Shown here: piece by piece, positions 7,192 through 49,529 of the stretch
Layout of the letters: every line of letters begins with the position of its first letter
Numbering within the stretch: the stretch's first letter is position 1
IMG/VR virus record: IMGVR_UViG_3300042975_000098
DNA length: 64,000 bases
Direction: 5' to 3' (one strand)
Source of the DNA: a virus
The notes under the pieces: generated by a model
What the model was told of the DNA's origin: nothing
What the model saw: the letters and a program-made list of their open reading frames with translations, nothing else
The model's database searches: none
Program-made: the position numbers and the translations under genes

Positions 7192-7623
7192 ATGGATGAC
7201 GAGCAGACTTCGGTGAGCACGATACCGGTGTACGTGTTCACCGAGTTCTTCAACCGCGAGGCGCAGATGTACGCGCTCGGCGACATACCGCTGCGCAAGC
7301 CGAAGTCCATCAAGGCCATGATCTACACCATCGTGCTGTTGCTGATCTATAGTGTGCCGATGCTGTTCATCGTGGGCATAGGCACCGTTCTCACCGGTCC
7401 GATCCCGGCGGCGATCGTCTTCGGGCCGCCGTTGGTCGCCGGCCCGTTCGTATCGAAGCCGAACTTCCATAACAAGACGTTCATGAAGCACATGACGGCG
7501 ATCGTGAGGTGGATGGGGCTGGCGGACATGTACTGCGACATGCGGGAGATGCAGTACGCGGAATCATCGTCCGCCGATATCGGCCTGTGGCTGGCCAACG
7601 ATAGCGATATTCACCATGCATGA
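7192..7623 (+). CDS. TcpE/VirB3-like conjugal transfer membrane protein
   Basis: Y.LGDI.L..P motif followed by two TM helices; stop overlaps the VirB4-like ATPase start. Confidence 0.65.
   Translation: MDDEQTSVSTIPVYVFTEFFNREAQMYALGDIPLRKPKSIKAMIYTIVLLLIYSVPMLFIVGIGTVLTGPIPAAIVFGPPLVAGPFVSKPNFHNKTFMKHMTAIVRWMGLADMYCDMREMQYAESSSADIGLWLANDSDIHHA
7605..7611 (+). promoter_or_regulatory. YGATATT motif 8 nt upstream of the VirB4 ATPase ATG
   Basis: CGATATT-caccatgc-ATG. Confidence 0.55.
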
Positions 7624-8792
7624 GAAACAATGAACCTGAGTGGGTGGGGCCGCTTGTAGGTGTGAACCTGCAGGGGTACCCCACCCCTTTCATGTTCGAT
7701 CCGCATTCCAGCATCAACTCGCCGCTGAGCAAATCTCATTCAAGCGGCATCCTCATCACCGGTGGTCCGGGTTCCGGGAAATCGTTCCTTGGCTATACGC
7801 TGGCGATGATATCGGCGATATCCGGCAAGGACACCATCATCGTCGACCCGAAGAACGATGCGCGTAACATAATCAAACTGTCCGATGAACTGGATGGTCT
7901 CGTCCATTCCATCGACATGAGCTCCGGCGGGCAGAACGGGGCGATGGACCCGTTCGTCAGCGACAAGGATCGCGCCGAGCGCGTCGCCCGCGTCTCCAAT
8001 CTCACGAAGATCCTCCTGGGCGATCTCGATTCCGAGGAAAGCACCGGTCTGTACGCGAAGATACAGGACGTGGCGAACATGCCCGACCCGTCCCTCAGCC
8101 TGCTCTGCGACGAACTCGCGAGGAATCAGAACCGCAAGGTATCGAATCTTGGCATACGACTGAAGAAGATCGGCAAGTCGGACCCCAAGGTCGGCAGCGC
8201 CATCTTCCGTTCCAGCCGCGCCCGATCCCGACCGCAGAAGATAGGCAAGGGACTCACCATCATCACCACGCTGGGCATGGATATACCCAACGAGGGAACG
8301 GACGCGAGCATGTACACCGACCAGAACCGTCTCGCCATGGGCATCATGTATCTCATCGCCAACTACCTGTGGGATACGGTATCCGACCCATCCCAGTACG
8401 ATCTGCCCAAGACCATTCTCATGGATGAGGCATGGGCGCTGCTCGCCACGCAGCAGGGCCTTGAAATCGCGAACACCATTCTCCGCAAGTCCAGATCGTT
8501 CAACGCCGTGCTTATCCTCATGACGCAGAACATCAAGGAGATCAACGATTCCGATTTCCAATCGCTCATGTCCACGCGATTCGCGTTCCACGCCGACGAC
8601 CCGGATACGGAGGGTCGGGAACTATGCAAGTCACTGCGAATCGACCCCGGTTACGCGCAGACGTTCCCCGACCTGGCGCAGGGGCAGTGCTTCGTACGCG
8701 ATTACAAGAACCGCGTGTCAGTCATCCAGATCATAGAGCAATCACCGTTATGGACGCGTGCGTTCGACCCGCATTCGGGATCGAGGGTATGA
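7620..8792 (+). CDS. VirB4/TcpF-like conjugation ATPase, C-terminal (ATPase) half only
   Basis: Walker A GGPGSGKS, IVDPKND, Walker B MDEAW, R.SRS.N...TQ, GQCFVRD..NRV; only 390 aa. Confidence 0.85.
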   Translation: MRNNEPEWVGPLVGVNLQGYPTPFMFDPHSSINSPLSKSHSSGILITGGPGSGKSFLGYTLAMISAISGKDTIIVDPKNDARNIIKLSDELDGLVHSIDMSSGGQNGAMDPFVSDKDRAERVARVSNLTKILLGDLDSEESTGLYAKIQDVANMPDPSLSLLCDELARNQNRKVSNLGIRLKKIGKSDPKVGSAIFRSSRARSRPQKIGKGLTIITTLGMDIPNEGTDASMYTDQNRLAMGIMYLIANYLWDTVSDPSQYDLPKTILMDEAWALLATQQGLEIANTILRKSRSFNAVLILMTQNIKEINDSDFQSLMSTRFAFHADDPDTEGRELCKSLRIDPGYAQTFPDLAQGQCFVRDYKNRVSVIQIIEQSPLWTRAFDPHSGSRV

Positions 8793-13480: not shown

Positions 13481-13592
13481 ACCCGCATGTTTCAGCCGGC
13501 GACCGCTTTCACGGAGGATTCCCACTGGTCCACGCTGGCGCTGCGTGGACTTCAATGAAAATTGATGGAGAACGGTCAAATCGGAATCGCTC

Positions 13593-13728
13593 TACGTCGA
13601 TTGCGCTCACACGGCAAGCGTTTGCTTATCGTATGAGCGTATTTTCTCGATGGCGTCGGAAAAACGGCGTTTTCGATGCCACGGTCACAAAACCATGTTT
13701 TGGCGTTCTACGTTGCTCTCAGCGCGCG
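13593..13728 (+). repeat. ~135-bp dispersed hairpin-rich element, copy 1
   Basis: Aligns with 25347..25482 and 49370..49507. Confidence 0.9.
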
Positions 13729-13784
13729 TCGTTGCCGGACGCTCGCATTGGACTTCGCGCCTGATTCCGTGATATAATGAAGAC

Positions 13785-17749: not shown

Positions 17750-19084
17750 ATGGCCAACATGAAGAAAATAGTCCCGCCGCCCATCGCCATCGTCGATAAC
17801 ATCGTGTTCTCGAAGACCGAGGCGTGGGCGTTCTGGAACCTGCCGCTGACGGCCTACGACTTCCTGTCGATGCAGGGGAAGTCGGCCATCCTCGCGCAGG
17901 ATTCCAACGCGCTGATCTCGCTCATGAAGGGGCGTGACGAGCCGGTGGACTGCAAGCTCATCCTCACGAACAGCCCGTTGGACGTGAACCACTGGGAGGA
18001 GAACTACATCGCCCTGTCCTCGACGTGGAACCACCGGTCGGGTTTCGACGAGTTCATCAGGAACCAGATCGACCTCATGAAGCACGAGTACAGCTTCGTG
18101 GATAAGCGGGTGTTCTTCGGCGTGAAGCTCAACAACCGGCTCGCCCTCGATTTCGACGCCATCAACCCGTTCCAGAAAGGGTTCAAGGATGCCATGGAGT
18201 ACACGAAGCGGTTCCTCAACTCGATGCTCGCCGTCCCCAACAACGTCATTCCCGACGAGGAGATAGAACGGGAGCACGCGCTTGAGGAATCGTACAATAC
18301 CATCATCTCGAACAGCGCACTCAATGGCGTTCGCTCGACCACCGAGGAACTCGCCCTGCTCATCAAGCAGACGCTGTACCCCGCCATGCCCGTGCCCAAC
18401 ATCCAGCTTGAAGACGATAGCCGCTGGGGGGCCGGCGACGCGTATGAGGACCTGATAAGCGACATCAGACCACGGGAGAACCCGAAGTACATTCGCATCA
18501 ACCAGACCATCGGCGGACGCCCCTACACCGGCTACCGGGCCACGCTCACGTTCAAGTCGTTCCCGCCGAAGATGCAGCCGCCCATCAGCGAACCATGGAT
18601 ATACTATTCCGTCAACAGCGGCGTGTCCAACCCGTTCGACGTGTTCTCCACGTTCACCATCGTCCCCAACGCCGTCATCCGCAAGGAGATCGAGAAGAAC
18701 AAGAAGATCCGGCAGGATGGCTTCGACAACGCCACGAAAGCGGGAGTCGACCCGTCATCGGAACTCGTCAGCGACCTCGATGAGGCCACGGAGCTTGACG
18801 CGTTCGCCGCGCAGAACCACCAGCCATGGGTGAAATCGACCACGAGAATGGTGCTCACCGCCAGCAGCGTGGAGCAGCTGGAGAAGGACGCCGAGACCAT
18901 GATCCAGAAGTACGGCGACCGCGGCGTCGGCATCAAACTCATATGGACCACGCACGATCAGGTGGACCTGCTGCTGGAATCCATGCCCGGCGCGAACCTC
19001 ATGGAGAAAAGCTTCGTCCAGATGTCCACGATGTCGCTCATCTCGGCATCCGGCTTCAACGTGTACAACGAGATCGGCGACTGA
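17750..19084 (+). CDS. N-terminal half of VirB4/TcpF(ConE)-like protein
   Basis: PIAIVDNIVFSKTEAWAFWNLP...YDFLS resembles the N-terminus of Tn916 Orf16/TcpF-type VirB4; ends at Q..LL.E.MPG...IGD, just before where the ATPase domain would begin; no Walker motifs. Confidence 0.65.
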   Translation: MANMKKIVPPPIAIVDNIVFSKTEAWAFWNLPLTAYDFLSMQGKSAILAQDSNALISLMKGRDEPVDCKLILTNSPLDVNHWEENYIALSSTWNHRSGFDEFIRNQIDLMKHEYSFVDKRVFFGVKLNNRLALDFDAINPFQKGFKDAMEYTKRFLNSMLAVPNNVIPDEEIEREHALEESYNTIISNSALNGVRSTTEELALLIKQTLYPAMPVPNIQLEDDSRWGAGDAYEDLISDIRPRENPKYIRINQTIGGRPYTGYRATLTFKSFPPKMQPPISEPWIYYSVNSGVSNPFDVFSTFTIVPNAVIRKEIEKNKKIRQDGFDNATKAGVDPSSELVSDLDEATELDAFAAQNHQPWVKSTTRMVLTASSVEQLEKDAETMIQKYGDRGVGIKLIWTTHDQVDLLLESMPGANLMEKSFVQMSTMSLISASGFNVYNEIGD

Positions 19085-19648: not shown

Positions 19649-20818
19649 ATGTTCCCGAGAATGCTGCTCATAGCCGCCATCGTCTACACGATAGGCGTGC
19701 TCGTCATCGTCAACATCGCGCTCGGCGTGGTCGACCGGGTGGCGGCCGACAGGGCCGCGCAGTCCCGTGATCCCACGCCGCCGAAACGCCGGCGACACGC
19801 GTTCTCCGAGAGCCTGCGGAAAGCGCTCGCCGACGATCGCCTGCTCCCGATCACCAGGAGCGTCGGCGAGACCGATGACCAGGGCAAGCCGGTGATGGAC
19901 GGCAAGGGCAAGCCGAAGAAGACGAAGGAGTACGTGCTTGAGAAGCACGACGCGTACGGCATCCTCATCGACCCCGGGCGCGGCGCCCTCACGTGGCGCA
20001 AGCTCTACGCGGCGCTGCTGGTAGCGTCCGTCATCATCACGGCCGCCGGCGTGATCTCGCCGGCGCTCTACGGGGTGGGGTTCATGGCGTCGCTCGTCAT
20101 GGACTCGCTCATCATCCATAACGGCGGGAAGCTGATCGCGGCGGAATCGAAGGCGTTCGACGACGTGCTGGCGATATCCCGGCTGAAGCTCGGAGCCGAC
20201 GCCACGGACCCGCATGAGATCATCAACATCACCGACTGGGAGTTCGCCGGCGAGGCCGCCAGCATCGCGAACGGCACCGTGAGGGCATCGGAGGACGGTC
20301 AGACCGAGGCCATCGCCAAGGAGGTCGATGCGTATAGTAAGGGGCATAGGCCGCGGATAGCGAGGATACGCGACGTGCCGGCGGCGATGACGATCGCGTT
20401 CCCCATCTCGTTCATGAAGTCAAGCACCGACGCGTTCATCACGCACATCAACCAGAACGTCGGCGGCGGCACCGTGGAATGGGTGGCGCAGAAGCGGACC
20501 AGCCAGCCGGATGGCTCGGTGAGGATAGAGAACGGCTGGGACTTCACGGCGCGCATGGTGACGTTGCGGACGATGCCGCCGCTCCCGGACATGGCGAAGC
20601 TTCCCATGGACATCGGGGACGGGCCATGGAACGCGATACGACTCGGCAAGACCGTCGAGGGCGAGGCCGTGTGGGATCTGAGCGGTCAGGGCGGGTCGGT
20701 GAACGGCCGCCCGCTCCACGGCGGCGGCGTCGGCGTGACCACCCCGATGTCGCTGGTGCCGCTGGCCACGGACACGAAGGTCATCGTCGTGGACAGCCGC
20801 CATGATTCACGTCCATGA
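19649..20818 (+). CDS. N-terminal membrane part of an FtsK/TcpA-type coupling protein, ending in a putative short intein N-fragment
   Basis: TM helices; PPLP..A....IRLG....G.A.WDL...TPMSLV is the lead-in to the FtsK P-loop, but the ORF then reads PLATDTKVIVVD (intein block A-like) and stops. Confidence 0.65.
   Translation: MFPRMLLIAAIVYTIGVLVIVNIALGVVDRVAADRAAQSRDPTPPKRRRHAFSESLRKALADDRLLPITRSVGETDDQGKPVMDGKGKPKKTKEYVLEKHDAYGILIDPGRGALTWRKLYAALLVASVIITAAGVISPALYGVGFMASLVMDSLIIHNGGKLIAAESKAFDDVLAISRLKLGADATDPHEIINITDWEFAGEAASIANGTVRASEDGQTEAIAKEVDAYSKGHRPRIARIRDVPAAMTIAFPISFMKSSTDAFITHINQNVGGGTVEWVAQKRTSQPDGSVRIENGWDFTARMVTLRTMPPLPDMAKLPMDIGDGPWNAIRLGKTVEGEAVWDLSGQGGSVNGRPLHGGGVGVTTPMSLVPLATDTKVIVVDSRHDSRP
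20759..20815 (+). other. Putative split intein N-fragment (19 aa, Pro1, class 3-like)
   Basis: PLATDTKVIVVDSRHDSRP matches xLxxDTxV/I block A. Confidence 0.5.
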
Positions 20819-20822
20819 TATT
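20816..20822 (+). promoter_or_regulatory. YGATATT motif 8 nt upstream of the cpaB-like ATG
   Basis: TGATATT-acccacgc-ATG, no SD. Confidence 0.6.
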
Positions 20823-20830
20823 ACCCACGC

Positions 20831-21937
20831 ATGTTCAAGAAGAAGTCGGTAGACATAGATGCGGCGCCAGCTGCCGCCAAGCAATCAGCATCGCTCAAGG
20901 ACAAGCGGCCGTTGTGGTTCCTGTTCTTCGCGCTGGCTATCATCGCAGCGTTCTCGACATGGCTGATACTCAACACCGTGTCCAAGCAGGACACGTATTA
21001 CGTGCTGTCCCACGCCGTCGCGGCGCAGACGAAGATCACGACCGATGACGTCACCGCGCAGACGCTCAGCGGGCAGAAGCCGCCGAACGCGCTGACCGTA
21101 TCGGACATCCAGCAGGGCAACGTGTACAGCAAGTACCCGCTGAACGCGGGCGATGTCCTCGCCGGGTCGAACGCGGGCACGTTGGACTCGTTGAACGAGG
21201 GCATTCCCGACAACTGGGTCATCACGTCGTTCACGGTCGCGTCCGATGACATGCCGACAAGCCTGCAGCGAAGCGATTACTTCGACATGATCGTGCCGGC
21301 GACCTCGGCGGTGTCCGACGCGAAGACCGAGCAGGTGCAGGCCACGAAGTACCTGTTCCGCAACGTCATGGTTCTGCAGACGTCGGCAACCACCGCAGGA
21401 ACCGCCGACGCCGCCAAGAACGGGCAGGCCGCGAGTTCATCGGGGAGCGACAACTCGGCGAACGTGACGCTCGTGGTAGGCATGTCGCCGAAGAACGCCG
21501 CGATTCTGCAGACCGTCATGAACCAGAACTACAACGTGAAGCTGGTCATCTCCCCGAAGCAGACCACGTATCAGGACCCGACCACGCTGAACGGGCTGTA
21601 TGACTTCGATTACCAGCAGGTGGTGGATGATGCGGTCGACCCGGCCAAGCCGAGCATCGTGGCATCGCAATGCACGAAGAACAACGGTGCGGACGAGAAC
21701 AAGAACTGCACCGATCCGACGTTCACCACGACGAAGCGCGATGCGTTCGGCGTTCCCTACAACGCCAAGGCGTCCGACCTTGACGAGAACGGCGATGTGA
21801 AGAAACTTACCGATTTCGAGAAGGAATGGTGCCAGCAGCTCTACTCCAACGACTACTACAACGGCAGCAAGTGGGAGTCGGCCAAGGCGTACTGCGCCAA
21901 GGGCGGCGTGAAGTCCGGCGAGTCATCGGCCGAGTAG
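20831..21937 (+). CDS. Flp pilus assembly protein CpaB/RcpC-like (SAF domain)
   Basis: N-terminal TM, SAF-like V....I...D....PPNA....YSKYPL.AGDVL, then RcpC-like NV.VL...VT..MSP..A. Confidence 0.7.
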   Translation: MFKKKSVDIDAAPAAAKQSASLKDKRPLWFLFFALAIIAAFSTWLILNTVSKQDTYYVLSHAVAAQTKITTDDVTAQTLSGQKPPNALTVSDIQQGNVYSKYPLNAGDVLAGSNAGTLDSLNEGIPDNWVITSFTVASDDMPTSLQRSDYFDMIVPATSAVSDAKTEQVQATKYLFRNVMVLQTSATTAGTADAAKNGQAASSSGSDNSANVTLVVGMSPKNAAILQTVMNQNYNVKLVISPKQTTYQDPTTLNGLYDFDYQQVVDDAVDPAKPSIVASQCTKNNGADENKNCTDPTFTTTKRDAFGVPYNAKASDLDENGDVKKLTDFEKEWCQQLYSNDYYNGSKWESAKAYCAKGGVKSGESSAE

Positions 21938-21958
21938 TATCGTGTCGTCGCGCTGAAT

Positions 21959-21991
21959 AACGGCGGCCCGTCATGATGGCGGGCCGCCGTT
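21959..21991. terminator. Hairpin terminator
   Basis: AACGGCGGCCCG..CGGGCCGCCGTT inverted repeat after the stop. Confidence 0.7.
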
Positions 21992-22063
21992 CCATGTCGT
22001 GAGCGATATTCTATTGACGCCCGCGGTATACTGTTATGGCACGGCGTTATAAGGAGTGGAAAC

Positions 22064-23599
22064 ATGACATCAGGAAAGGCGAAGGCCCTTTTCATCGGGA
22101 ACCATGACACATGGTCGGCTCTTCAGAAGACCATGCGCCCCGAATGGGATTGGCAGCAGCCGATCGACAATGTATCCGTCTTCGCCTCATGGTTGCGCGG
22201 CGAGGACGTCAAGATGCCGTTCGAGATCAGCGAGGACACGTCGATCATAGTCATCTCGACCGAGTTCTACAAGGCCGGACTCAACCCGAAGCCGCAGTAC
22301 GCCAAGCTCCGTGATGACTTCCTCGCCGCGGTCGCGTACTCGTCCAGTGAGACGATGTGCATGGTTCTTAACTACTGGCCTGAGCTGCAGAAGCGCATCC
22401 AGCAGGATATCGTCATGTGGGGGCAGGACCACCGGTCCGAGGACGTCACCATCGGTAAGTACTACTGGGTGCAGTCCTCACGACCTAACGCCTACATCGA
22501 CAGGGCCATAACCGAGTACCTGTCGGACCCGGAATCGGACCCCACGGCCAAGATGATCGTCGCCGAGAGCGAAGGGCTCCAGCTTCCCTCGGCCACGCCG
22601 GAGACGAAGACGGCCGAGGTCGAACCGGCGCCCGGCGAGTTCTCGGATTACATGACCGAGGACACAGATTCCAAGCCGTTCACGAACTCGTTCGGGCGGA
22701 ACGCGCTGATCGTCGCGAGCACCTCCACCAAGGGCGGGGTCGGCAAGACCACCATGGCGATGCTGACGGGAACGTGGTTCGTCCGGTCGAGCGACCTCGC
22801 CGTGAGGAACGGTTCGCTCAAACAGCCTCTCAAGGTGTGCATCGTAGATCTGGACATGAAGGACACGCAGATAGCGACCATGCTCAACCTCACCGCGCAG
22901 TCCGCTAAGAAGAACGTCATGCGCATCATCGGGTCGCCCGTGTTCACCGATAAGACGGTCGCCGACAACCTCGTGTACGACAAGCGCATGAAGTGCTGGT
23001 TCCTCCTCGGACCCAAGCAGGCGTCCAACGCCGCGGCGATCAAACCGTCCAAGTACGCCCAGATATTCGGCGTGCTCCAGCGCATGTTCGACATCGTCAT
23101 CATGGATACGTCAGCGGCCCCCATGGGGGTGAAGCTGTTCTCCGATGTCGTCTACCCGATGGCGAATGAGATCATGTTCATCACTTCGCTGGACAGGCGT
23201 TCGGTGGTCGGCATGTCCAAGTGGATCATAGCCGAGGGAAGCCCGAAGGAGCATGGAGGCAACGGCATCGCCCTTGATAAGATGAAGATCGTCATCAACG
23301 TCAACAACGGCAGCGATGTGGAGATGAGCGCCGAGGAGATCCAGAACTCCATCAAGTTCCCGCTGGTGACCGTGTACGGCAAGTTCCCCACGAAGATGGC
23401 CGAGGAGGAATGGAAGAAGCCGCAGCTTGTAGGGGTGGTGAAGTACATGGGTTCCACGATCACGAAATGGTCCAACCTCCAGGAGATGCCGATGGCGCTG
23501 AACACGCCGACGCTGGAGCGTTCGATCTCCAACATATGCCGGTCACTCGTCCCGAAGTCACTCGCGGACATTCTGCCGAACATCGAGAAGGTCGAGTAG
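22064..23599 (+). CDS. CpaE/TadZ-like ParA/MinD-family ATPase
   Basis: Deviant Walker A KGGVGKTT, IVDLD, FDIVIMDT; receiver-like N-terminal domain; follows cpaB. Confidence 0.8.
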   Translation: MTSGKAKALFIGNHDTWSALQKTMRPEWDWQQPIDNVSVFASWLRGEDVKMPFEISEDTSIIVISTEFYKAGLNPKPQYAKLRDDFLAAVAYSSSETMCMVLNYWPELQKRIQQDIVMWGQDHRSEDVTIGKYYWVQSSRPNAYIDRAITEYLSDPESDPTAKMIVAESEGLQLPSATPETKTAEVEPAPGEFSDYMTEDTDSKPFTNSFGRNALIVASTSTKGGVGKTTMAMLTGTWFVRSSDLAVRNGSLKQPLKVCIVDLDMKDTQIATMLNLTAQSAKKNVMRIIGSPVFTDKTVADNLVYDKRMKCWFLLGPKQASNAAAIKPSKYAQIFGVLQRMFDIVIMDTSAAPMGVKLFSDVVYPMANEIMFITSLDRRSVVGMSKWIIAEGSPKEHGGNGIALDKMKIVINVNNGSDVEMSAEEIQNSIKFPLVTVYGKFPTKMAEEEWKKPQLVGVVKYMGSTITKWSNLQEMPMALNTPTLERSISNICRSLVPKSLADILPNIEKVE

Positions 23600-23654
23600 C
23601 CGACGACGCGCGCACGAGTGCGTATCGAAGAGCAGCGGGGAGAGGAACTCGTAC

Positions 23655-24440
23655 ATGATTGATCTTATGGACATCGAGAGCACCGATGTCGTCGACGAAC
23701 GGCGCGCCCGGATAGTCCATGACGCCATCGCCAAGGGCAAACGTCATTTCGGTGTGGCCGGCGCATCCCTCACATGGATGAACTCGCCCAAGCAGAAGGA
23801 GATGCTGCCCGAGGGATGGAAGCCCAAGATACTCGAGGAGGCCATGCTCGCCGAGCAGAGGACGTCGGACACGCTGCGTGACTGGATCAAGGACAAGCCA
23901 TCCGCCGTGCTCATCGACAGCACGCACATCCGCGGACTCGGCAAGGAGCGCATCGACAAGGACACCGGTCTCATCGAGGGCGGCGACACCGATCACGTGC
24001 TCATCATCGGCGGGGCTATCTTCATCATCGACACGAAGAACTGGCGCAAGAAGGCGACGTACACGGTCAGTGACAAGGGCGCGGTTCTCAGGAACTCCAA
24101 GACGTTCCCGGGAGGGCGGGTCCATATCGAACGAGCGGTCCACATGTGGCTCGATTACGTCGACCCGATCATCGATGACGTGTCCATCAAAGGCGCCATA
24201 TACATCAACAACGACGATGACGAGACCACCAGGGTGTTCCGCGGCCCGACATGGTACAAGCATCACTGGTTCCTTCTCGAACACTCACGGTTCATCAAGT
24301 GGATGGACGAGAGCTACGCCGCGCTCAGCGACACGGACAGGAACACCATCGACCCGACCATGATCGCCGAAGTGGCGCAGTGCTGCGTGAAGCCATACAA
24401 CCGCCGCGACGGGCTCATCAACACGAAGGCGCTCCGCTGA
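23655..24440 (+). CDS. NERD-domain PD-(D/E)xK nuclease-like protein
   Basis: AEQ.T...GDTDHVLI....FIIDTKNW. Confidence 0.75.
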   Translation: MIDLMDIESTDVVDERRARIVHDAIAKGKRHFGVAGASLTWMNSPKQKEMLPEGWKPKILEEAMLAEQRTSDTLRDWIKDKPSAVLIDSTHIRGLGKERIDKDTGLIEGGDTDHVLIIGGAIFIIDTKNWRKKATYTVSDKGAVLRNSKTFPGGRVHIERAVHMWLDYVDPIIDDVSIKGAIYINNDDDETTRVFRGPTWYKHHWFLLEHSRFIKWMDESYAALSDTDRNTIDPTMIAEVAQCCVKPYNRRDGLINTKALR

Positions 24441-24480
24441 CGTTCGCCGACCAACCCGTCGATCGCGCATATTGATCAGC

Positions 24481-24512
24481 AGGCGACCCCGTTCCATGGA
24501 ACGGGGTCGCCT
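24481..24512. terminator. Perfect 32-bp palindrome
   Basis: AGGCGACCCCGTTCCA|TGGAACGGGGTCGCCT followed by TT. Confidence 0.7.
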
Positions 24513-24603
24513 TTCCATAAGCATCGCCGCCGGCGCGTCGATGCCATGGCCAAGAGTACCATGTGAACCATAAGATCATTCCACACGAGGAAAGCGGGAT
24601 TCC

Positions 24604-25323
24604 ATGTACGACGCGAACGGCCAGCACGCGATGATCACCAAGGCGGAGGCGCGCGCGGTTTTGAAAATCGTCGGCGACACGACAGCGGACAGGATCGCCA
24701 AAGGCAAGACCATAAACCCGACGTTCCACTCGATCATGCCGTTCGCCAGCGACGAACGACGCCCGTCGGATGGCATACCCGACACCACGGAGCCATACGG
24801 GTATGCCTACATCACGAACCGATTCGCCATCGTTCGCTGGCGAATCGATATCGACGCGGCTCGCCGACATCTCGCCGACGGGGAGACCATCAGCGAGCAG
24901 GCGCTCTCCGCCGCGATCAAGGTCATGCGAAGCTCCGAGCGACTCAATCTCAATGATGATGCGCTGTGGTCGGCGGGCGAGGGGTTCGACAGGGAGATAC
25001 CACGCTCCGTCGACCTGAGCTTCGAGCACATCGCCGGGTCGGCGAGCGCGACCGCAGACGACCGTCAACACATGTACGCGCTTCGCTTCCCCGGTGATGA
25101 TGGCTCCGGGCTGAGCAAGCACGCCGACGATGGTCATGACCGGTTCGACGTGAACACGATCATGATGTCGAAAGCAGGCGCCGCCATCGAGCCGCGGGCG
25201 CGCGTCCACGCATCGCTGATCACGATGAAAGGCGGCATGACCGCCATTCGACTCGACCCCTATGAGCGCCATGACGGCGTCGAGGTGGAGGCGTTGCTGC
25301 TTGGCATGACCCCACATCGGTGA
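24604..25323 (+). CDS. Hypothetical protein
   Basis: 239-aa ORF with host-like codon usage. Confidence 0.6.
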   Translation: MYDANGQHAMITKAEARAVLKIVGDTTADRIAKGKTINPTFHSIMPFASDERRPSDGIPDTTEPYGYAYITNRFAIVRWRIDIDAARRHLADGETISEQALSAAIKVMRSSERLNLNDDALWSAGEGFDREIPRSVDLSFEHIAGSASATADDRQHMYALRFPGDDGSGLSKHADDGHDRFDVNTIMMSKAGAAIEPRARVHASLITMKGGMTAIRLDPYERHDGVEVEALLLGMTPHR

Positions 25324-25346
25324 TATCGCCATCGGCAACGGCCGTT

Positions 25347-25482
25347 TACGTCGATTACGCTCATACGATAAGCAAACGCTTGCCGTGTGAGCGTATTTTT
25401 TATGCGACGTCGGGAAAACGCCGTTTTCGATGCCACGGTCACAAAACCGCGTTTCCGTGTTCTACGTGGCTTACAGCACGCG
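25347..25482 (+). repeat. ~135-bp dispersed hairpin-rich element, copy 2 (internal segments inverted)
   Basis: Aligns with copies 1 and 3; 25364..25387 is the reverse complement of 13610..13633. Confidence 0.9.
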
Positions 25483-25493
25483 CCGGCGCCGAA

Positions 25494-25500
25494 CGATATT
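25494..25500 (+). promoter_or_regulatory. YGATATT motif 8 nt upstream of the ATG
   Basis: CGATATT-gaccggtc-ATG, no SD. Confidence 0.6.
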
Positions 25501-25508
25501 GACCGGTC

Positions 25509-25643
25509 ATGACAGACGGCATGGAGACATTCACCCTTGAGGACATCCACGAGATCGACGCCGATGACGATCTCGTGTGCATCAGCGTCGACTCGCCCGG
25601 GCACGAGTTCCTGATAGGCGACACGCTCGTCCCCACGCACAAC
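25509..25643 (+). other. Split intein C-fragment (45 aa, class 3 signature)
   Basis: Block F Cys (VCISVD), block G THN, +1 Ser. Confidence 0.85.
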
Positions 25644-26459
25644 AGCGATGACACCGCCGATCTGAAATCCGAGGCGCAGTCGATCGTCGGCTCGATCGCC
25701 CGACTCGGGCGAGCGGCCGGCGTGTTCCTCACGCTGGCCACGCAGCGCCCTGATGCGAAGATGCTCCCCGGCGAGACCAAGGCCAACCTCGGAGCGCGCA
25801 TCGCCTGCGGGCAGATGAACGCGACCGCCAGCGACATGGTTCTCGGCAGCGGCAGCGCCGTGTCGACGCCTGGGCATCCGAAGGGCCGAGGCATATACAG
25901 CGACTACGGGGCCGAGGAGAAGATGCAGATATACTTCGCCAACGAAACGTGGATCGATCAGTGGCTCAAGGACCACAACATGAACCCGGACGGCTCGCCA
26001 TTGTCATCGGGCCCGGCGTCGCTGCTCCCGGACGAGGAGGACATCGCACGCCTGCGCGGCACGCACCTCGACGAGATGGAGGGCGTCGACAACAGCGAGT
26101 ACAAGGCCGAGTTGAAGAAGAAGGACGCCGAGGTACGCGCCGAGCACGCCCGCAGACTGGCCGAACTGAACGGCGAACCAGTCGACGACGATGACATCGA
26201 TGACGGCATATCGGACGATGACGCCGTTGACGGCGACGTCGAAGACGCCGCGGCGCCGATGCCGAGCGAGCCAGAACTTCCGCCGATGGTCGACGGGATG
26301 AAGCGTCCGAACCTCACGGGCGGCGATGGCAAGAAGACGGAGAACCCGTTGGACGAGTGGGATGACACCATGGGCGAACTCTACGCGCCGGCCGACGCCG
26401 AGGGCGACGACCTCATCACCACGGGCGACGATGAGGATGAGGATGAGGATGACGACTGA
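25509..26459 (+). CDS. Split-intein C-fragment fused to the C-terminal part of an FtsK/TcpA-type ATPase with an acidic tail
   Basis: aa 1-45 end in VCISVDSPGHEFLIGDTLVPTHN|S (intein blocks F/G); then IARLGRAAGVFLTLATQRPDA..LPG..KANL..RI...KGRG (FtsK post-Walker-B). Confidence 0.85.
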   Translation: MTDGMETFTLEDIHEIDADDDLVCISVDSPGHEFLIGDTLVPTHNSDDTADLKSEAQSIVGSIARLGRAAGVFLTLATQRPDAKMLPGETKANLGARIACGQMNATASDMVLGSGSAVSTPGHPKGRGIYSDYGAEEKMQIYFANETWIDQWLKDHNMNPDGSPLSSGPASLLPDEEDIARLRGTHLDEMEGVDNSEYKAELKKKDAEVRAEHARRLAELNGEPVDDDDIDDGISDDDAVDGDVEDAAAPMPSEPELPPMVDGMKRPNLTGGDGKKTENPLDEWDDTMGELYAPADAEGDDLITTGDDEDEDEDDD

Positions 26460-27426: not shown

Positions 27427-29388
27427 ATGGCATCGGTAGCATCATATAAGGCCATGGCCGAGGATAATCTCGCCTATGGTAAGGCGCCGCGGTTCAGCGC
27501 GATGCGCAAGCATGCCCAACCGTTGTCGGAGCGCGCGCCTGGCGTCATCGATGAGTGGATGCTCGTGAACGGGGTCGACCCCAGTCTGGTCGGCTCCATG
27601 GACCACACGAAGGCATGGTGGAAGTGCAGAACATGCGGCGGCGAGTGGCGTGCGGCCGTGTACTCGCGGGCAATGGGATCGGGCTGCCCTTACTGCTCCG
27701 GACGCCGTGTAAGCGCCGGTTTGAATGACCTTGCAACGGTTGACCCCGAACTTGCAGGGCAGTGGGATTACGAGCGGAATGGAAACGTCAAGCCACAGGA
27801 TGTGGGAATCGGCTCGAAACGTATGACGTGGTGGATAGTGGATGGAGTTCATGTAAGGAAGAGCGTGGCGTACATGCACGGACTTAAGAAGAAGCCCGTC
27901 GAGGTGCGCATGATCTCGGAGAGCATAGCAGCCAGCCGACCTGACCTCATGAGCGAATGGGACAGCCGTAACACGGCGAACCCGCAGGTCGTCAGCGTGT
28001 ATTCCAACGCGGCGGCATGGTGGCATTGCGAGAACGGGCACGTATGGAAGGCGCGAATCGCCAACAGAGCCAACGGAAGCGGCTGCCCCTACTGCTCATG
28101 GCGTCGTGCTATCACCGGGGTCAACGATCTTCGCACAAAAAGACCCGACGTCATGGAGTCATGGTCGGATGACAACACCTTGGACCCGGGAAAAGTGACG
28201 CCAGGGTCCAATCGTAAGGCGACATGGGTATGTCCAAAAGGACATGATTATGAGATGACCATCGTAAACAGGTGTGGACATGGCAACCACTGCCCGGTTT
28301 GCAATGGTTCGAAGCTGCTCAAGGGCTATAACGATCTGGCTACGGTAAGGCACGATGCCGCGCGCCTATGGGCTGACGATCTGAATGGAGGAGTTCACCC
28401 ATGTGATGTTCAATCGCAATCACACCGCGTGTTCTGGTGGAGATGTGACAGAGGGCATGAATGGCGGGACATGGTGAATGGACCGCTGGTCTGCCCGGAG
28501 TGCTGGGCCGACAATCGGAGCGCGGGTGAAACCGAACTCTATGATGCGATCGTCAACATGCTTCCGGTCGCCATGAGGGGCGAGGTCATAAGGAACAATC
28601 GCACGGTGCTTGCGGGGCGGGAACTGGATGTGTACATACCATCCATGAGACTGGCCTTCGAATACAACGGTGTGTACTGGCACGATGAGGAGCATCATGA
28701 CCGCCACTATCACGAGGACAAGTGGCGTGACTGTAAACATGTCGGCGTAACGCTGATGCAGATATGGGAGGATGACTGGATGAATCGGCGGGGTATCATC
28801 ATGGACCACATTCAGGTGTTGCTTCATCAAGCGAACGATAACGCTCGCATAGGCGCTCGACAATGCTCCGTCGCTGACGTGTCCGCGCACGATGTCGGTG
28901 CGTTCATGGATCGGTATCACATTCAAGGGCGCGTGGGAGGTTCCATACGCAAAGCGCTCATGCATGATGGCGTTATGGTCGCCGCCATCATATGCAGTAG
29001 ACGGAATGCGAGCACCATGGTCATCGAACGGTACGCGACTCAATCACACACGCTTGTCCAAGGAGGGTTCACGAAACTGCTGACCAGTATTCTCAGGGAG
29101 AACACCAACATCGACACCGTGCTGACATTCTCCGATCACTCCCTGTCCGATGGCCACTTGTACTCAAGGAACGGGTTCACGGACGACGGGATGATTCCGG
29201 CGGACTACTCGTATGTGATTCACGGGAACAGGGCGCATAAGTTCGGGTACAGGTTGTCGAGGTTCAAATCGGATCCCGCATTAAAGTACGTGAGCGGATG
29301 CTCCGAGAAGGAGTTGGCTCGTATGAACGGAATTCACTGGATCTGGGATGCCGGGAAGACCAGATGGCTTCTCAAAGTGAAAAGGTGA
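27427..29388 (+). CDS. Free-standing putative homing endonuclease: zinc-ribbon repeats + PD-(D/E)xK + GNAT/Mom-like C-terminal domain
   Basis: 4 intact and 1 degenerate WWxC..GHxW..CPxC repeats; S.GE, ELDVYIP..LAFEYNG.YWH, IWEDDW; C-terminal HIQG, RYAT, GGF.KL, FSD...G.LY..GF, WDAGK.RW; lower GC. Confidence 0.8.
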   Translation: MASVASYKAMAEDNLAYGKAPRFSAMRKHAQPLSERAPGVIDEWMLVNGVDPSLVGSMDHTKAWWKCRTCGGEWRAAVYSRAMGSGCPYCSGRRVSAGLNDLATVDPELAGQWDYERNGNVKPQDVGIGSKRMTWWIVDGVHVRKSVAYMHGLKKKPVEVRMISESIAASRPDLMSEWDSRNTANPQVVSVYSNAAAWWHCENGHVWKARIANRANGSGCPYCSWRRAITGVNDLRTKRPDVMESWSDDNTLDPGKVTPGSNRKATWVCPKGHDYEMTIVNRCGHGNHCPVCNGSKLLKGYNDLATVRHDAARLWADDLNGGVHPCDVQSQSHRVFWWRCDRGHEWRDMVNGPLVCPECWADNRSAGETELYDAIVNMLPVAMRGEVIRNNRTVLAGRELDVYIPSMRLAFEYNGVYWHDEEHHDRHYHEDKWRDCKHVGVTLMQIWEDDWMNRRGIIMDHIQVLLHQANDNARIGARQCSVADVSAHDVGAFMDRYHIQGRVGGSIRKALMHDGVMVAAIICSRRNASTMVIERYATQSHTLVQGGFTKLLTSILRENTNIDTVLTFSDHSLSDGHLYSRNGFTDDGMIPADYSYVIHGNRAHKFGYRLSRFKSDPALKYVSGCSEKELARMNGIHWIWDAGKTRWLLKVKR

Positions 29389-32138: not shown

Positions 32139-33917
32139 ATGATGTGCTGGCGAACGCCATCGAACAGGGAATCGGCGAGCGCGCGGCGGCAAGAGCAAAC
32201 GACATCCCTCTACATGAACTCCGACGCGAGGAATCGAGGACTGGCGATCATCTCCGCGGATTCCCGAAAAGCACTGCGACTCATCCCCTATGAGCAGCTT
32301 CTTCATATGCTCACGGTCGATCAGACCCCTATGGCGGGGATATCGGACGAACTGCAGGTATCGCGTTCGATGGTGGGATCGGCCATCAAGTTCTACCGAA
32401 TCGATATAAGCCCGGAGACCAAGGCGGTGATGAGGAGGAAGGCGTATGACATAGCGCGGAGCAAGTATCGCGCCATGTGCGCCGATCCCGTGAGAGGCAA
32501 GAAGATTCGAGAGAAGACCAAGGCCACGAACATGCGCAAGTACGGCGTGGAATCCCCAACCCAATCTCCTGACGTCAAGGCACGGATTAACAAGACGCTG
32601 CGAAGGAAATACGGGAAGGGCGGGAGTCCGTTCGCCAACAAGTCGGTGCGCGACAAGGCGACGAAGACCATGATTGAACGTTACGGCGTTGACATCTCAT
32701 GGAAATCGGAAGAAGTCAAAGCGAAGATACGCCGAACTAACATACAACGCTACGGCGATGCAGTCGCCACGCGTTCGCCTGCGGTGAAGAACAAGTCCAT
32801 GAACACCAACATGGAACGGTACGGCGTGAAATGGAATACCGTGTCGCCTGAGGCTAGGGCGAAAGCCAAGGCATCGTACATGCGCCATTACGGCGTGGAT
32901 AACCCGTCGAAATCACCGGAAGTCCTTAACAAGATCGCCAAATCCATGAACAGGGGCGAATCAGCCAACGAGAAGATGGTCGCCGACCTTCTCGATTCCA
33001 TTGGGGTGGCTTACAGGGTGAACGACCATGGCATGATTGGTCAGGAACTCGATTTCGTCATCCCCTCCGCGAAACTTGCGATAGAAGTATCACCATGTTT
33101 CACTCATCATAGCAATGAATCACAGGTTCTCACCATCAAGCCCAAGAAGAGATCCTACCATAAGCATAAGCATGATATGGTCGAACAGCTTGGTTACGAA
33201 CTCATCACGCTGACGGATTCGCATATGACGAGGGACCGGTGGCGCGACCTGACCGCACCGTTCCTCACGCTGAAGACAACGGGAAGAGCCGAACATGTCA
33301 TGTACGGTCGTAACGTCACGATATCACACGAGACCACGAGAAGCGGAAGACGCGAATGCGGATCGTTCATAGACAAGTATCACTTCAGCGGCAACACGCC
33401 GGCGAGCGATTATTTCTCGGTGCGCGATGCTGGCGGGGCGATGGTCGGCGCGTTCTCCCTACGGAAGCCGAGGAAGTCAACAGGCGGCGTCATCGAACTC
33501 GCCAGACTCGTATGGCGCAATGACGTACAGGTAAGGTACGGTCTGTCAAAAATCGTCCACACGATAGCAAGAACCATACCCGCCAACACTCTGCTATCCT
33601 ACTCGGATAACTCCATGGGCAACGGCTACTCGTACATGAGGGCCGGCTTCGCATATCAGGGCGACACGGAGCCCGGTCTCCACTTCGTGAACCCGCATGA
33701 CCCGATGGACAACTACTCGTGGCAGGTGGCGACGCCATGGGGAGCCAAGAGCGGCATCATAGCAAGACTGATACGCCCCATGGAGATCACGAAGAAAGAA
33801 GCGAAGATCATCGTGGAGAAAGACCTCCCCCATAGAAGCGATGACGGTAAGGGATACTTCGCCTATTATGACACCGGCAGTAAAAGATGGGAATATGATC
33901 TTCGCTCCCTACGGTGA
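32139..33917 (+). CDS. Free-standing putative homing endonuclease: YG-repeat DNA-binding region + PD-(D/E)xK + GNAT/Mom-like domain
   Basis: Six T..(E/R)(R/K)YG repeats; S.NE, ELDFVIP..LAIEV; ELARL, YSD...G.G.SY..AGF, YDTG.KRW; lies between nrdD and nrdG. Confidence 0.75.
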   Translation: MMCWRTPSNRESASARRQEQTTSLYMNSDARNRGLAIISADSRKALRLIPYEQLLHMLTVDQTPMAGISDELQVSRSMVGSAIKFYRIDISPETKAVMRRKAYDIARSKYRAMCADPVRGKKIREKTKATNMRKYGVESPTQSPDVKARINKTLRRKYGKGGSPFANKSVRDKATKTMIERYGVDISWKSEEVKAKIRRTNIQRYGDAVATRSPAVKNKSMNTNMERYGVKWNTVSPEARAKAKASYMRHYGVDNPSKSPEVLNKIAKSMNRGESANEKMVADLLDSIGVAYRVNDHGMIGQELDFVIPSAKLAIEVSPCFTHHSNESQVLTIKPKKRSYHKHKHDMVEQLGYELITLTDSHMTRDRWRDLTAPFLTLKTTGRAEHVMYGRNVTISHETTRSGRRECGSFIDKYHFSGNTPASDYFSVRDAGGAMVGAFSLRKPRKSTGGVIELARLVWRNDVQVRYGLSKIVHTIARTIPANTLLSYSDNSMGNGYSYMRAGFAYQGDTEPGLHFVNPHDPMDNYSWQVATPWGAKSGIIARLIRPMEITKKEAKIIVEKDLPHRSDDGKGYFAYYDTGSKRWEYDLRSLR

Positions 33918-36912: not shown

Positions 36913-37243
36913 GCGTTGATTGTACCGGTCCGCGAGAAAGGGCGACGGAAGCCGACGATAACAACATGATTTCCGTCAGACGCATTTTAACGGGTCATAG
37001 AGAGCCTATCACGTAAAAAATGTATGATGAGTCGTATTCGTCACGTAAGGACGCTGGCGGTGCCTTTACGTGACGCTGGCGGCATTGCGTGCGATCGTGC
37101 TCGTTCATGTCATCGAGAGAAAAGCCGGCATGGTTGCTCACGGACATCGCTGCCGATCACCGTGATTGCGGGATGACACAGCGAACCGTCTCATCACCAT
37201 GACCGGTCATACGATGATGATGAAAAAGCTACGACCCAACCCC

Positions 37244-37434
37244 CTCAAATCGTGTTAAAGGTGGGAGCTATCAGGTATACGGACGACAGTCCGAGCAGCC
37301 AACGCCAACGCCAACACGGGAAACCACGCCCCCGCGATACGGAGAAAGTGGTCCAGCCGCGGTCAGCATGGTCCACGTCAAAAGCCACACCCTACCCGCT
37401 CAAATCGTGTTAAAGGAGGGAGCTATCAGGTATA
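37244..37434 (+). repeat. Two copies of a 36-bp repeat (37244..37279, 37399..37434)
   Basis: CTCAAATCGTGTTAAAGGWGGGAGCTATCAGGTATA. Confidence 0.95.
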
Positions 37435-37577
37435 GCGGCGCTAGCCCGCGAATGACCCGGCCACCCAGCGGCACGACCCACGCGGGCAGCACCACTGTGA
37501 ACGATTTGCGATGATAACCCAGTAGCAGGGCCACACCCATAGCCGCGGGCTATCATGGCAATAGGTACAAGGAGACA

Positions 37578-46120: not shown

Positions 46121-46287
46121 ATACCAAAACGTTAAATCGTTGGAATACCAACGATTGCGAGACTTTCTTTTTATATAGAAATACCAGAACATTGGATACG
46201 GGTGTATAGTAGATAACTACGCAAAAATAATAACGTCGTTTACCTATGTTTACTGTTTTTTATAACAAGCAGTGGTATAATACAGTC

Positions 46288-48468
46288 ATGGCGAAAAGAA
46301 GAAAACCGATATTGGCAACCGACTATCCACTCATCGCCGCCGAATGGGACACGGGCGCCAATAAAAACGTTGACCCGGGAGCGAGTCCTCAGAGCATTTC
46401 AGCGAACTCCCCAGTGCATTACTGGTGGCGTTGTTCTCATGGTCATCCGTCATGGCTGGCAACGCCGGCGTATCGCACACGATTCCCGCAGTACGGTTGC
46501 CCGTACTGCGGGGGACGCAAGGCGATTCCCGGCGAGACCGATCTAGCAACGCTGTTCCCGGAACTGGCGAAGGAATATGCCGCCGACCTTAATGACGCGC
46601 CCGTGAACACCATCAAGCCCGAGGATAAGCATAACTACTGGTGGAGATGCTCACTAGGTCATACATGGCAGGCGGCGCCTAACACGCGGACGAAGAAGCA
46701 CACTCGCTGCAGATACTGCGCCAACCGATATGCTTGGCCCGGTTTCAACGACTTGGCTAGCAAGTTCCCAGACATAGCGGCGGAGTTCGATGTGGAGAAG
46801 AACGACACCACAGCCGATCATGTCGTGTACAACTCGCATCATGTCATGTGGTGGAAATGCGACAAAGGACACTCGTGGTGCGACGATGTTCGAGCGCGAA
46901 CCGAGCGCCATACTCGTTGCCCGCAATGTCACGGCGTATACAAGGGTTACGGTAACCGATTGATACCGGGAGTGAACGATCTTCTCTCGGCCCACCCCGA
47001 ACTTCGCGAATACTGGAACGAGCCGACCTATGATAATACCCTGCCAAACTCGAACAAAAAATACCAATGGAAATGCCCGAAAGGACACACTTGGCTGGCT
47101 TCGCCGAACTCTCTTATGAGCAGCACCAAGGATTATTGTCCATACTGCTCGAACTCAAGGGTGTGGTCAGGCTTCAATGACCTACAGACATTGTTCCCGG
47201 ACATCGCCAAGGAATGGGATGCCGATAAGAACAAGAGACCAGCATCACAGGCCTTGCCCTTCTCCAATAAACGGGTCTGGTGGAAATGCGCCGCGCATGG
47301 CCACTCATGGTCATCACCGATGAACTTGAGGACGACAGCGAAGAACGCTACCGGTTGTCCGTATTGCTCGAATCATCGCATCTTGGTCGGTTTCAACGAT
47401 CTCGCCACCACGAACCCGGAACTTGCGAAGGAATGGAACACCGATCGTAATGGAGGCCTTACCCCGAAGGATGTCGTCGCCGGCACCGATAGGAAAGTGT
47501 GGTGGCGTTGCGCGAAGGGACATGAATGGAAGGCGGGAGTGTATTCCAGATCCAATCGTAAAATGCCCACCGGCTGCCCCGAGTGCGCCGCCGCCGAAAC
47601 GTCGAGCCGCGGCGAGATCGAGGTGCGCGATTACATCACGTCATTGCTGCCGACCGGCACCGAGGTGCTGGCGAACGACCGTACCGCCATCGCGCCGAAG
47701 GAACTCGACGCGTACGTGCCATCGTTGGCGATCGCCGTCGAATACGACGGGATATACTGGCATACCACGATTGCCGGTCGCGGGCGCGATTATCATCACG
47801 ATAAGTGGGAACAATGCCGCAAACAGGGCATCCGCCTCATACAGATATGGGAGGACGAGTGGCGCGATCGCCGGCCGATCGTCGAGGACATGCTGAAATA
47901 CGTTCTCCACGCTGGCGACCCGATCCGTATCGGCGCGCGGACATGTGCGATCGATGCTGACGTACCCCGGGCCGATGCCGATGCGTTCATGAACGCGAAC
48001 CACATTCAGGGCCGCGCCAACGCGTCGCTTCGCTTCGGCCTGCGATCCGCGGACGGATCGTTGGCGGCGGTCATGCTCGTGGCACGACGTGAGGATGGTT
48101 CATACCTGCTGACTCGGTATGCGACCACGCTTGGAACCAGCGTCGTCGGCGGGTTCACCAGATTGCTTTCCCACATGCGAGATCGCATCGGTGAGCACGG
48201 CAGAATCATCACGTTTAGCGACCATCGCGTATCAGATGGCGGACTGTACAAGTCCAACGGTTTCAAGCAGGACCTCATGCTGCCGCCCGATTATTATTAT
48301 GTGAACGGCGTGAACCGTGAGCATAAGTTCAACTACCGCAAGGCGAGGTTCAAGAGCAATCCGAATTTGCGTTACGAGGAGGGCCTCACGGAGACGCAAC
48401 TGGCTAGGATCAACGGCCTTGAGCGCGTGTACGATTCCGGCAAGACCCGGTGGCTGTTGGACTGGTGA
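46288..48468 (+). CDS. Free-standing putative homing endonuclease: six zinc-ribbon repeats + PD-(D/E)xK + GNAT/Mom-like domain
   Basis: WWxC..GHxW..CxxC x6; S.GE, ELDAYVP..IAVEYDG.YWH, IWEDEW; paralog of 27427..29388. Confidence 0.8.
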   Translation: MAKRRKPILATDYPLIAAEWDTGANKNVDPGASPQSISANSPVHYWWRCSHGHPSWLATPAYRTRFPQYGCPYCGGRKAIPGETDLATLFPELAKEYAADLNDAPVNTIKPEDKHNYWWRCSLGHTWQAAPNTRTKKHTRCRYCANRYAWPGFNDLASKFPDIAAEFDVEKNDTTADHVVYNSHHVMWWKCDKGHSWCDDVRARTERHTRCPQCHGVYKGYGNRLIPGVNDLLSAHPELREYWNEPTYDNTLPNSNKKYQWKCPKGHTWLASPNSLMSSTKDYCPYCSNSRVWSGFNDLQTLFPDIAKEWDADKNKRPASQALPFSNKRVWWKCAAHGHSWSSPMNLRTTAKNATGCPYCSNHRILVGFNDLATTNPELAKEWNTDRNGGLTPKDVVAGTDRKVWWRCAKGHEWKAGVYSRSNRKMPTGCPECAAAETSSRGEIEVRDYITSLLPTGTEVLANDRTAIAPKELDAYVPSLAIAVEYDGIYWHTTIAGRGRDYHHDKWEQCRKQGIRLIQIWEDEWRDRRPIVEDMLKYVLHAGDPIRIGARTCAIDADVPRADADAFMNANHIQGRANASLRFGLRSADGSLAAVMLVARREDGSYLLTRYATTLGTSVVGGFTRLLSHMRDRIGEHGRIITFSDHRVSDGGLYKSNGFKQDLMLPPDYYYVNGVNREHKFNYRKARFKSNPNLRYEEGLTETQLARINGLERVYDSGKTRWLLDW

Positions 48469-49296: not shown

Positions 49297-49369
49297 CGGG
49301 CGTTCGCCGACGGTGCGAGCGCCCGGTACCCATCGCGGACGGCCGCTGGCATGAACATCAATGAGCGTC

Positions 49370-49507: not shown

Positions 49508-49529
49508 CCCGACTGCGGCACGGCAGCGA

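Follow-up and report, generated by a model that had tools for sequence, protein, structure and literature searches.

The window analysed here, a stretch of 64,000 nucleotides (nt) from IMG/VR record IMGVR_UViG_3300042975_000098 on whose full length all positions below are counted, encodes two portions of an FtsK/TcpA-like ATPase, each fused to a fragment of an intein. The two portions lie in the plus-strand open reading frames (ORFs) 19616/19649-20818 and 25509-26459 of the table-11 ORF listing of the window. An earlier note had read them as parts of a motor protein encoded in three or more genes and rejoined by split class-3 inteins. Here, the pieces are numbered 1 to 4 in the order in which they would stand in the protein, the inteins are called a0, a1, and b, and the fragments from their N and C termini are called IntN and IntC.

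Piece 1 begins at position 19649, a start also used by JGI gene calls on near-identical contigs, with an AGGAGG ribosome-binding site before it and an S26 peptidase gene directly upstream. Its N-extein of 370 amino acids (aa; 19649..20758, plus strand) comprises the membrane segment and the pre-P-loop domain of an FtsK/TcpA-like ATPase. It aligns with the N-terminal 330 aa of the full-length homologues P0250 and P0247, both of which carry PF01580, and it ends in ..TTPMSLV, the strand immediately preceding Walker A. The ORF then closes with the 19 aa PLATDTKVIVVDSRHDSRP (20759..20815, plus strand) and a stop codon. In P0250 and P0247, a contiguous intein follows ..PMSLI, opening with PLSVSTMIWV and closing with IPTHN/CGSTGGGKS (slash, splice junction). 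The PL..(D/S)T.(V/I) stretch of the piece 1 tail corresponds to the opening of this contiguous intein, which ends THN/CGSTGGGKS in the full-length homologues. Because these inteins fix the register, intein a0 of the window begins at Pro371, and the tail is its IntN, consisting of block A with Pro at position 1. The suggestion in the earlier note that the N piece stops in a block A stub exactly where Walker A should start is borne out by these homologues. Two alignments give the block A register as P1 L2 x x D5 T6 x V8 with an invariant PL. Conservation of the tail, also raised in the note, holds for its first 11 residues, which form the constrained core; the remainder varies, and the strain behind contig L006 ends in ..VIVVERH and a stop instead.

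Piece 4 begins with the other kind of fragment. Its residues 1 to 45 (25509..25643, plus strand) are IntC of intein b, ending ..LVCISVDSPGHEFLIGDTLVPTHN/S and containing block F with Cys24 and block G with T43-H44-N45 (..LVCISVDSP..LVPTHN/S), so that Ser46 is the +1 residue. The C-extein of 271 aa (25644..26456, plus strand) is the post-Walker-B part of the motor, with the motifs GSIARLGRAAG and ATQRPD, followed by an acidic tail. Residues 49 to 159 match the FtsK/SpoIIIE-like PHROGs family phrog_1358 (1.1e-23), and there are partial NCBIfam matches to FtsK, EccC, and TraB. The intein alignment and the phrog_1358 match confirm the composition proposed for this ORF, a 45-aa intein C-half joined to the post-Walker-B part of FtsK. 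The connecting Walker A-B piece was not found anywhere in the 64-kb window by tblastn with five Walker A-B-containing homologues as queries, the C piece being the sole match, in agreement with the note.

The arrangement of N piece and C piece recurs at 96 to 99.97% identity in independent assemblies, namely, the ENA contigs L006 and L007 together with L038 to L040, which come from JGI and Logan. A misassembly, considered as a source of the split, was rejected because these assemblies, made from other samples, agree. The C piece is under purifying selection: its ratio of nonsynonymous to synonymous polymorphism (pN/pS) is 0.06 against L006, and its insertions and deletions (indels) in other strains are all in frame.

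Split and contiguous forms of intein b

A search with the C piece returned 281 cluster representatives, and 98 of the 120 best matches are stand-alone genes made of IntC and extein; had all homologues been contiguous, this would, according to the note, have refuted its proposal. Thr occupies +1 in 72 of these 98 stand-alone pieces, and Ser does in the other 26. Cys24, His44, and Asn45 of IntC(b) are nearly invariant in the alignment, and the window IntC(b) shares about 50% identity with the C-terminal portion of contiguous inteins that homologues carry at this site. P0071, P0109, and P0119 carry such a contiguous intein of about 160 aa at site b, opening with ALxGST, and the stand-alone IntN(b) and IntC(b) tile onto it without overlap. 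The site lies directly after Walker B, where intein-free homologues read ..AAAK/TDEAK...

The intein b profile matches the class-3 DnaB inteins 6BS8 (1.3e-9) and 6RIX/6RIY (about 1e-8). The HINT fold (the Hedgehog/intein fold) was examined on contiguous homologues to which the window halves align; the model of a contiguous intein b homologue has a predicted local distance difference test (pLDDT) score of 94, and its best fold matches are again the class-3 inteins 6BS8, 6RIX, and 6RIY.

A middle gene carries Walker A and Walker B

Contig L001 (111 kb) shares the order S26 peptidase, N piece, C piece, nrdD with the window and has, between its N and C pieces, the 313-aa gene P0121. This gene starts with an IntC that includes block B (VIKCDGNHLWTV) and runs to ..SHN, continues with TGGGKS..IMIDEAGELL..APAK, and ends with an IntN that opens with ALVGSTII and has block B as AEHWW. 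A search with P0121 returned 280 representatives, and IntN(b) forms the end of 94 of the 118 best.

A gene of this build also exists in the lineage of the window. Members of the 90% cluster of P0128, and of the cluster of the window N piece too, lie on contigs of 346,143 and 347,100 bp, and JGI contig Ga0527070_018 (346 kb) contains a stretch that is 99.967% identical to window positions 9649-30818. About 160 kb upstream, at 121,308-122,276, Ga0527070_018 carries P0253 (322 aa). Residues 1 to 87 of P0253 are an IntC(a1) of 87 aa that starts at block B, with a match to intein_Cterm (NCBIfam TIGR01443) above the cut-off on residues 61 to 88. The extein, T88 to K194, contains TGGGKS, DEAGELL, and ..GGGK and matches PF01580 at 34.9 bits (cut-off, 24). 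The remaining 128 aa, residues 195 to 322, are IntN(b), with Ala195 at intein position 1. Pieces 1, 3, and 4 are therefore encoded in one genome, and the separate gene predicted by the note, a long IntC, then Walker A through Walker B, then a long IntN, is found as P0253 here and as P0121 in the relative L001. Another gene, P0124, was rejected as the middle piece of the window lineage on account of its GC content of 45 to 46%.

In relatives, a fourth gene supplies the remainder of the Walker A inteins

Alignment to contiguous forms shows that the a0 stub and the middle-gene IntC leave some 55 residues between block A and block B uncovered and lack the P-loop residues CG(G/S) as well, the window-type stub being block A only and the middle-gene IntC beginning at block B. 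A profile of the block A-to-B segment, compared with six-frame translations, identified one minus-strand gene in L001 (2.6e-22); the same profile had no match in the six frames of the window, so no further intein piece is hidden there. The L001 gene, piece 2, encodes an intein that lacks block A only and ends in SVPTHN, then CGG, and then an intein start, PLSLDT.., that halts before block B. Sixteen clusters make up the piece-2 family, in which the block B His and Trp, the block F Cys, THN, CGG, and PL are all invariant.

Profile-profile comparison with hhalign placed IntN(a1) of piece 2 on columns 1 to 65 (E value, 3.8e-14) and IntC(a1) of the middle gene on columns 66 to 157 (9.4e-11) of the contiguous a0 intein profile, which itself matches class-3 DnaB inteins at 7e-11. 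This placement identifies the two as complementary halves of intein a1. The two halves of a0 are complementary as well: in two alignments, the stub and the piece-2 IntC cover the whole intein. P0246 and P0248 represent an intermediate state, with a contiguous a0, CGS, and IntN(a1) in one chain. All four pieces are encoded in G001, a complete, terminally repeated record of 419,707 bp, with piece 1 at 208.9 kb on the plus strand and pieces 2, 3, and 4 at 104.8, 100.9, and 91.7 kb on the minus strand.

Because piece 2 supplies both the missing block A-to-B segment and CGG, four pieces and three splicing events are likely. The scheme of the earlier note, with three pieces and two splicing events, was right in its core reading of separate genes with split-intein halves, whereas its 19-aa IntN is probably not the partner of the middle-gene IntC.

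For the lineage of the window, the candidate piece 2 is the cluster P0289/P0340 (213 aa; 25 members), built as ..GVPTHN/CGG/PLTLD.., with an IntN(a1) of 57 aa in P0340. Its contigs have a GC content of 61 to 63%, like the window, and hold a copy of the dispersed element of about 130 bp of this lineage, and the gene has the GATATT motif of the other pieces, described below. The cluster co-occurs with the other pieces in samples 3300051660, 3300045596, 3300046047, SRR16378847, and SRR16378897. Taken together, these features make it likely that P0340 belongs to the replicon of the window. The same-genome pairing has been observed for intein b, and the partners of a0 and a1 in this genome are candidates. 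A complex prediction with the piece 1 tail, P0253 residues 1 to 125, and P0340 gave a median score of 0.34, with one control within 0.19, and speaks neither for nor against their association. P0288 was rejected as piece 2 of the lineage, its GC content being 45 to 46%.

A second group of relatives (P0207, P0224, and about 56 further clusters; contigs L013 and L016 to L020) has its Walker A intein three residues further on. The IntC of this group is about 40 aa long and ends in (S/T)HN/S, the Ser being that of GKS, and site b is split in some members and unsplit in others.

Hallmarks of class-3 inteins

All of the intein halves carry the hallmarks of class 3, as the note had maintained. Position 1 is a non-nucleophile, namely, Pro371 in a0, an invariant Pro in a1, and a nearly invariant Ala (Ala195 of P0253) in b. 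The Cys at block F position 4 is nearly invariant in the window C piece (Cys24) and invariant as C64 of P0253 and C130 of P0340. The Trp at block B position 12 occurs in HLW of P0253 (W13, present in at least 90% of sequences), in the invariant HVW of piece 2, and in IntN(b) as H263/W265. Block G, whose position 5 is Thr in class-3 inteins, is THN in b and a0 and (S/T)HN in a1, and the +1 junctions are HN/S46 in the window b, HN/C for a0, and HN/T for a1.

Proposed assembly of the motor and alternative explanations

Taken together, these data lead us to propose, with a probability of about 0.78, that the two pieces in the window are the opening and closing parts of a membrane-anchored ATPase of the FtsK/TcpA type that is encoded by four genes and joined by protein trans-splicing. 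Piece 1 would contribute the N-extein and an IntN(a0) of 11 to 19 aa. Piece 2, which lies outside the window and for which P0340 is the candidate, would contribute IntC(a0), the three-residue extein CGG, and IntN(a1). Piece 3 (P0253) would follow with IntC(a1), TGGGKS through Walker B to ..GGGK, and IntN(b), and piece 4 with the 45-aa IntC(b) and the C-extein. In each intein, the N-extein would pass to the block F Cys, forming a thioester that the +1 Cys, Thr, or Ser would attack in turn, and the reaction would close with cyclisation of the terminal Asn. With three trans-splicing reactions of this kind, the product would be a protein of about 751 aa reading ..PMSLV-CGG-TGGGKS.. at the P-loop and ..GGGK-SDDTADLK.. 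after Walker B. Both this chemistry and the specificity with which the halves pair are inferred. In its full detail, with four chains, three mutually specific split class-3 inteins, an IntN of 11 residues, a split before block B, and a CGG carrier that completes the P-loop, the scheme is one toward which we lean somewhat.

Several observations weigh against this proposal. Neither the N piece nor the C piece, taken singly, has a Pfam match. The N piece has a pN/pS of 0.56, from 35 changes only, indicating relaxed constraint. Contigs from RNA libraries (one run) are short, lie on parts of the region that include 25705-25894, and were not counted as expression because they may reflect DNA carry-over. 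Finally, in sample 3300051660, the sole one with the 346-kb contig, the piece-2 candidate is on a separate contig of 24.7 kb.

This last placement would be expected if there were three pieces only, with the 19-aa IntN docking on the 87-aa IntC of the middle gene to form a hybrid mini-intein of about 100 residues and a product reading ..PMSLV-TGGGKS... No piece-2 gene was seen on the examined parts of the 346-kb contig, and the block A sequences of a0 and a1 are similar (PL..DT), which also fits such a pairing. However, the pair would do without the roughly 55 block A-to-B residues present in every contiguous homologue, and the first Gly of the P-loop, present in the CGSTGGGKS of contiguous forms, would be lost. 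To our knowledge, the smallest natural split intein is gp41-1 (88 plus 37 aa), and the hybrid would be smaller still. L001 and the complete G001 share the same types of stub and IntC yet encode piece 2, and there is a piece-2 cluster of similar size that matches the lineage, so we consider assembly from three pieces unlikely. It is very unlikely that the pieces are fossils, that is, decaying remnants of a gene broken by endonuclease insertions and rearrangements, with no functional ATPase. The relaxed N piece and its variable tail would suit such decay, as would the abundance of mobile genes in the region (DUF4379, Vsr-like endonuclease, NERD, and TnpB), but the catalytic residues of all three inteins and both Walker motifs are invariant across lineages that are just 35 to 60% identical. 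The strong constraint on the C piece and its exclusively in-frame indels also speak against decay; moreover, pieces 2 to 4 each retain their own promoter motif in two lineages, and the split architecture is common to hundreds of clusters.

The halves of characterised split inteins bind tightly ahead of any chemistry, and the intein halves could in principle act only as docking modules, making the motor a multichain complex formed without peptide bonds. Docking gives no role to the block F Cys, the terminal His-Asn, or the +1 Cys, Thr, or Ser, which are invariant or nearly so in every half, and a three-residue CGG extein is sensible only if it is ligated into the P-loop; we regard purely noncovalent assembly as highly improbable. 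If the four-gene, trans-spliced reading is correct, the transfer motor would exist only where four scattered genes are co-expressed, a built-in AND gate. The earlier note had suggested a post-translational switch on conjugation; selfish fracture of the gene by homing endonucleases accounts for the arrangement equally well.

Comparison with known systems

AceL NrdHF is the only published class-3 intein with a natural split, and no split form was found among 1701 class-3 inteins (PMC7891396); a 2025 review likewise cites AceL NrdHF alone as a natural split class-3 intein and names AceL-TerL and GOS-TerL as natural cases with a short IntN (PMC11766414). AceL NrdHF has Ala1, an internal block F Cys as first nucleophile, Ser at +1, a canonical 98-plus-48 split, and a phage-like fractured gene (PMC7891396), and intein b is comparable, with its 128-plus-45-aa split, Ala1, Cys, and THN/S. 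The two differ in several respects. The host protein here is an FtsK/TcpA-like ATPase and that of AceL NrdHF is a ribonucleotide reductase; the Trp-Cys-Thr triplet is fully kept here; and there are three inteins per protein and hundreds of clusters. The pieces here lie up to 160 kb apart, whereas those of AceL NrdHF flank one endonuclease gene. In the fold search, the AceL NrdHF structure (6ZGQ) ranked 49th, and class-3 DnaB inteins were closer. Those of Mycobacterium smegmatis and M. chimaera (6BS8, 6RIX, and 6RIY) are the best profile (7e-11 to 1e-8) and fold matches and share the class-3 hallmarks, but they are contiguous, reside in a helicase, and are about 20% identical to the inteins described here.

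A very short IntN combined with a long IntC, as in a0, is known from AceL-TerL and GOS-TerL (IntN of 25 and 37 aa; PMC11766414). These are class-1 inteins (Cys1 or Ser1) in terminase genes, while a0 belongs to class 3 and its conserved core is shorter. A further parallel comes from fractured genes (Dassa et al. 2009, PMC2677866), where a split intein interrupts the gene of an enzyme in a mobile-element setting, with a Vsr-related endonuclease nearby. At those loci the gene is in two parts with one endonuclease gene between them, whereas the four pieces here are scattered and, in relatives, divided between the two strands. Inteins in three pieces and tandem trans-splicing have been engineered (PMC12707363; bioRxiv 10.1101/2023.01.30.526203), with fragments joined by orthogonal split inteins as proposed here; those systems are laboratory designs, and the present one would be natural and would include a carrier piece with a three-residue extein. 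The best solved match to the ATPase is the TcpA-type coupling protein (6O1W-6O1Z), to which the window adds TcpF/VirB4-like halves and Tad/pilus genes. Known TcpA-type proteins are single chains, and the N-terminal 370 aa here belong to no recognisable family.

Full-text literature searches returned nothing relevant on split inteins with FtsK or on natural multipiece assembly, and no description of a split just before block B was found in the literature examined. As far as these searches show, the proposed motor would be the first natural protein assembled from more than two pieces by trans-splicing, one of them a carrier whose extein has three residues. Protein ligation, labelling, and large-gene delivery rely on split inteins as core tools, and few natural atypical ones are known. 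The family offers natural split pairs of class 3 in their hundreds, diverged and spread over three sites, one with an ultrashort IntN; if the proposed splicing is true, it would serve as a large library, of natural origin, of orthogonal split inteins of this class. It also shows the reach of selfish gene fracture in giant mobile elements and raises the question of whether co-expression of the fragments gates conjugation.

A giant plasmid-like element

IMG/VR files the relatives as viral contigs of 290 to 470 kb. The complete record G001 has no match to Terminase_6N or the HK97 capsid and does have a VirB4-like gene, so the element of the window is better described as a giant conjugative plasmid-like element of about 346 kb. 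The core of the spliced-type ATPase matches 6O1W-6O1Z ("DNA translocase coupling protein") best (5e-14), ahead of FtsK, and PF01580 is found in the contiguous homologue P0250 at 2.8e-15. From these matches, our best guess is that the motor may act as a coupling protein in conjugative type IV secretion. The window also encodes T2SSE and T2SSF pilus genes, CpaB-like and ParA/TadZ-like proteins, S26 peptidase, RecA, DnaG, NrdD, and NrdG. Metagenomes of bioreactor sludge, fermentations, birds, and pig gut, sampled in many studies, contain the element. Near-identity DNA searches of plasmid and phage collections gave no match, nor did the C piece when IMG/VR was scanned for close relatives; a scan of GTDB genomes gave three small contigs of metagenome-assembled genomes only, and a metagenome-contig scan with P0128 gave a single unrelated weak match.

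Four plus-strand genes, described from Pfam results, separate pieces 1 and 4: a cpaB/rcpC-like gene (20831-21937), a ParA/TadZ-like gene (22064-23599), a gene for a NERD nuclease-domain protein (23655-24440), and one for an unknown protein of 239 aa (24604-25323). Their order is kept in L006, L007, L038, and L039. A TcpF/VirB4-like ATPase is likewise present as two genes, 7620-8792 and 17750-19084, in reverse order and free of intein parts, its C-terminal half (model positions 468 to 794 of 813) lying about 9 kb upstream of its N-terminal half (6 to 428).

The C-piece operon and nrdD are separated by a gene of 653 aa (27427-29388) that encodes five treble-clef zinc-finger repeats of the DUF4379 type. 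L006 and L007, although collinear in other respects, lack this gene, which thus behaves as a mobile insert. The window has a second DUF4379 gene (740 aa) at 46246-48468, and in the relatives L001 and L013 genes of this kind are found flanking split sites. Between nrdD and nrdG, a free-standing 592-aa gene (32139-33917) combines DUF7487 with a Vsr-like endonuclease of the family tied to fractured genes (PMC2677866); the same slot in L007 holds a 225-aa protein with a weak DUF559 match and a 140-aa protein instead. On the minus strand, 52719-54044 is a TnpB/Cas12f-like gene (TNB domain), related copies of which adjoin the middle piece (L036) and lie near the piece-2 candidate (L044).

A GATATT-N8 motif, likely a leaderless promoter, immediately precedes the start codon of the C piece at 25495..25508 on the plus strand. 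The spacing between GATATT and the ATG is exactly 8 nt for pieces 2, 3, and 4 and for the cpaB-like gene (GATATT at 20817-20822), with no Shine-Dalgarno sequence. The motif was seen in two lineages, of 45% and 61% GC, before the middle piece (L036), the piece-2 candidate (L043), and pieces 2 to 4 of L001. Just upstream of the C-piece promoter, at 25347..25481, lies a copy of the dispersed intergenic element of about 130 bp. Other copies are at 13588-13737 and 49359-49511, on the middle-piece contig (L036:19473-19602), and on the piece-2-candidate contig (L044:13759-13898); the copies are about 80% identical to each other and show strong depth spikes in four of four runs. Arrays of a repeat of about 50 nt, with periods of about 155 to 180 nt, occur at 37224-37452 and 59447-59864, and on a further contig of the lineage (L033:1583-3257), copies up to 100% identical follow closely downstream of the gene for the middle piece.

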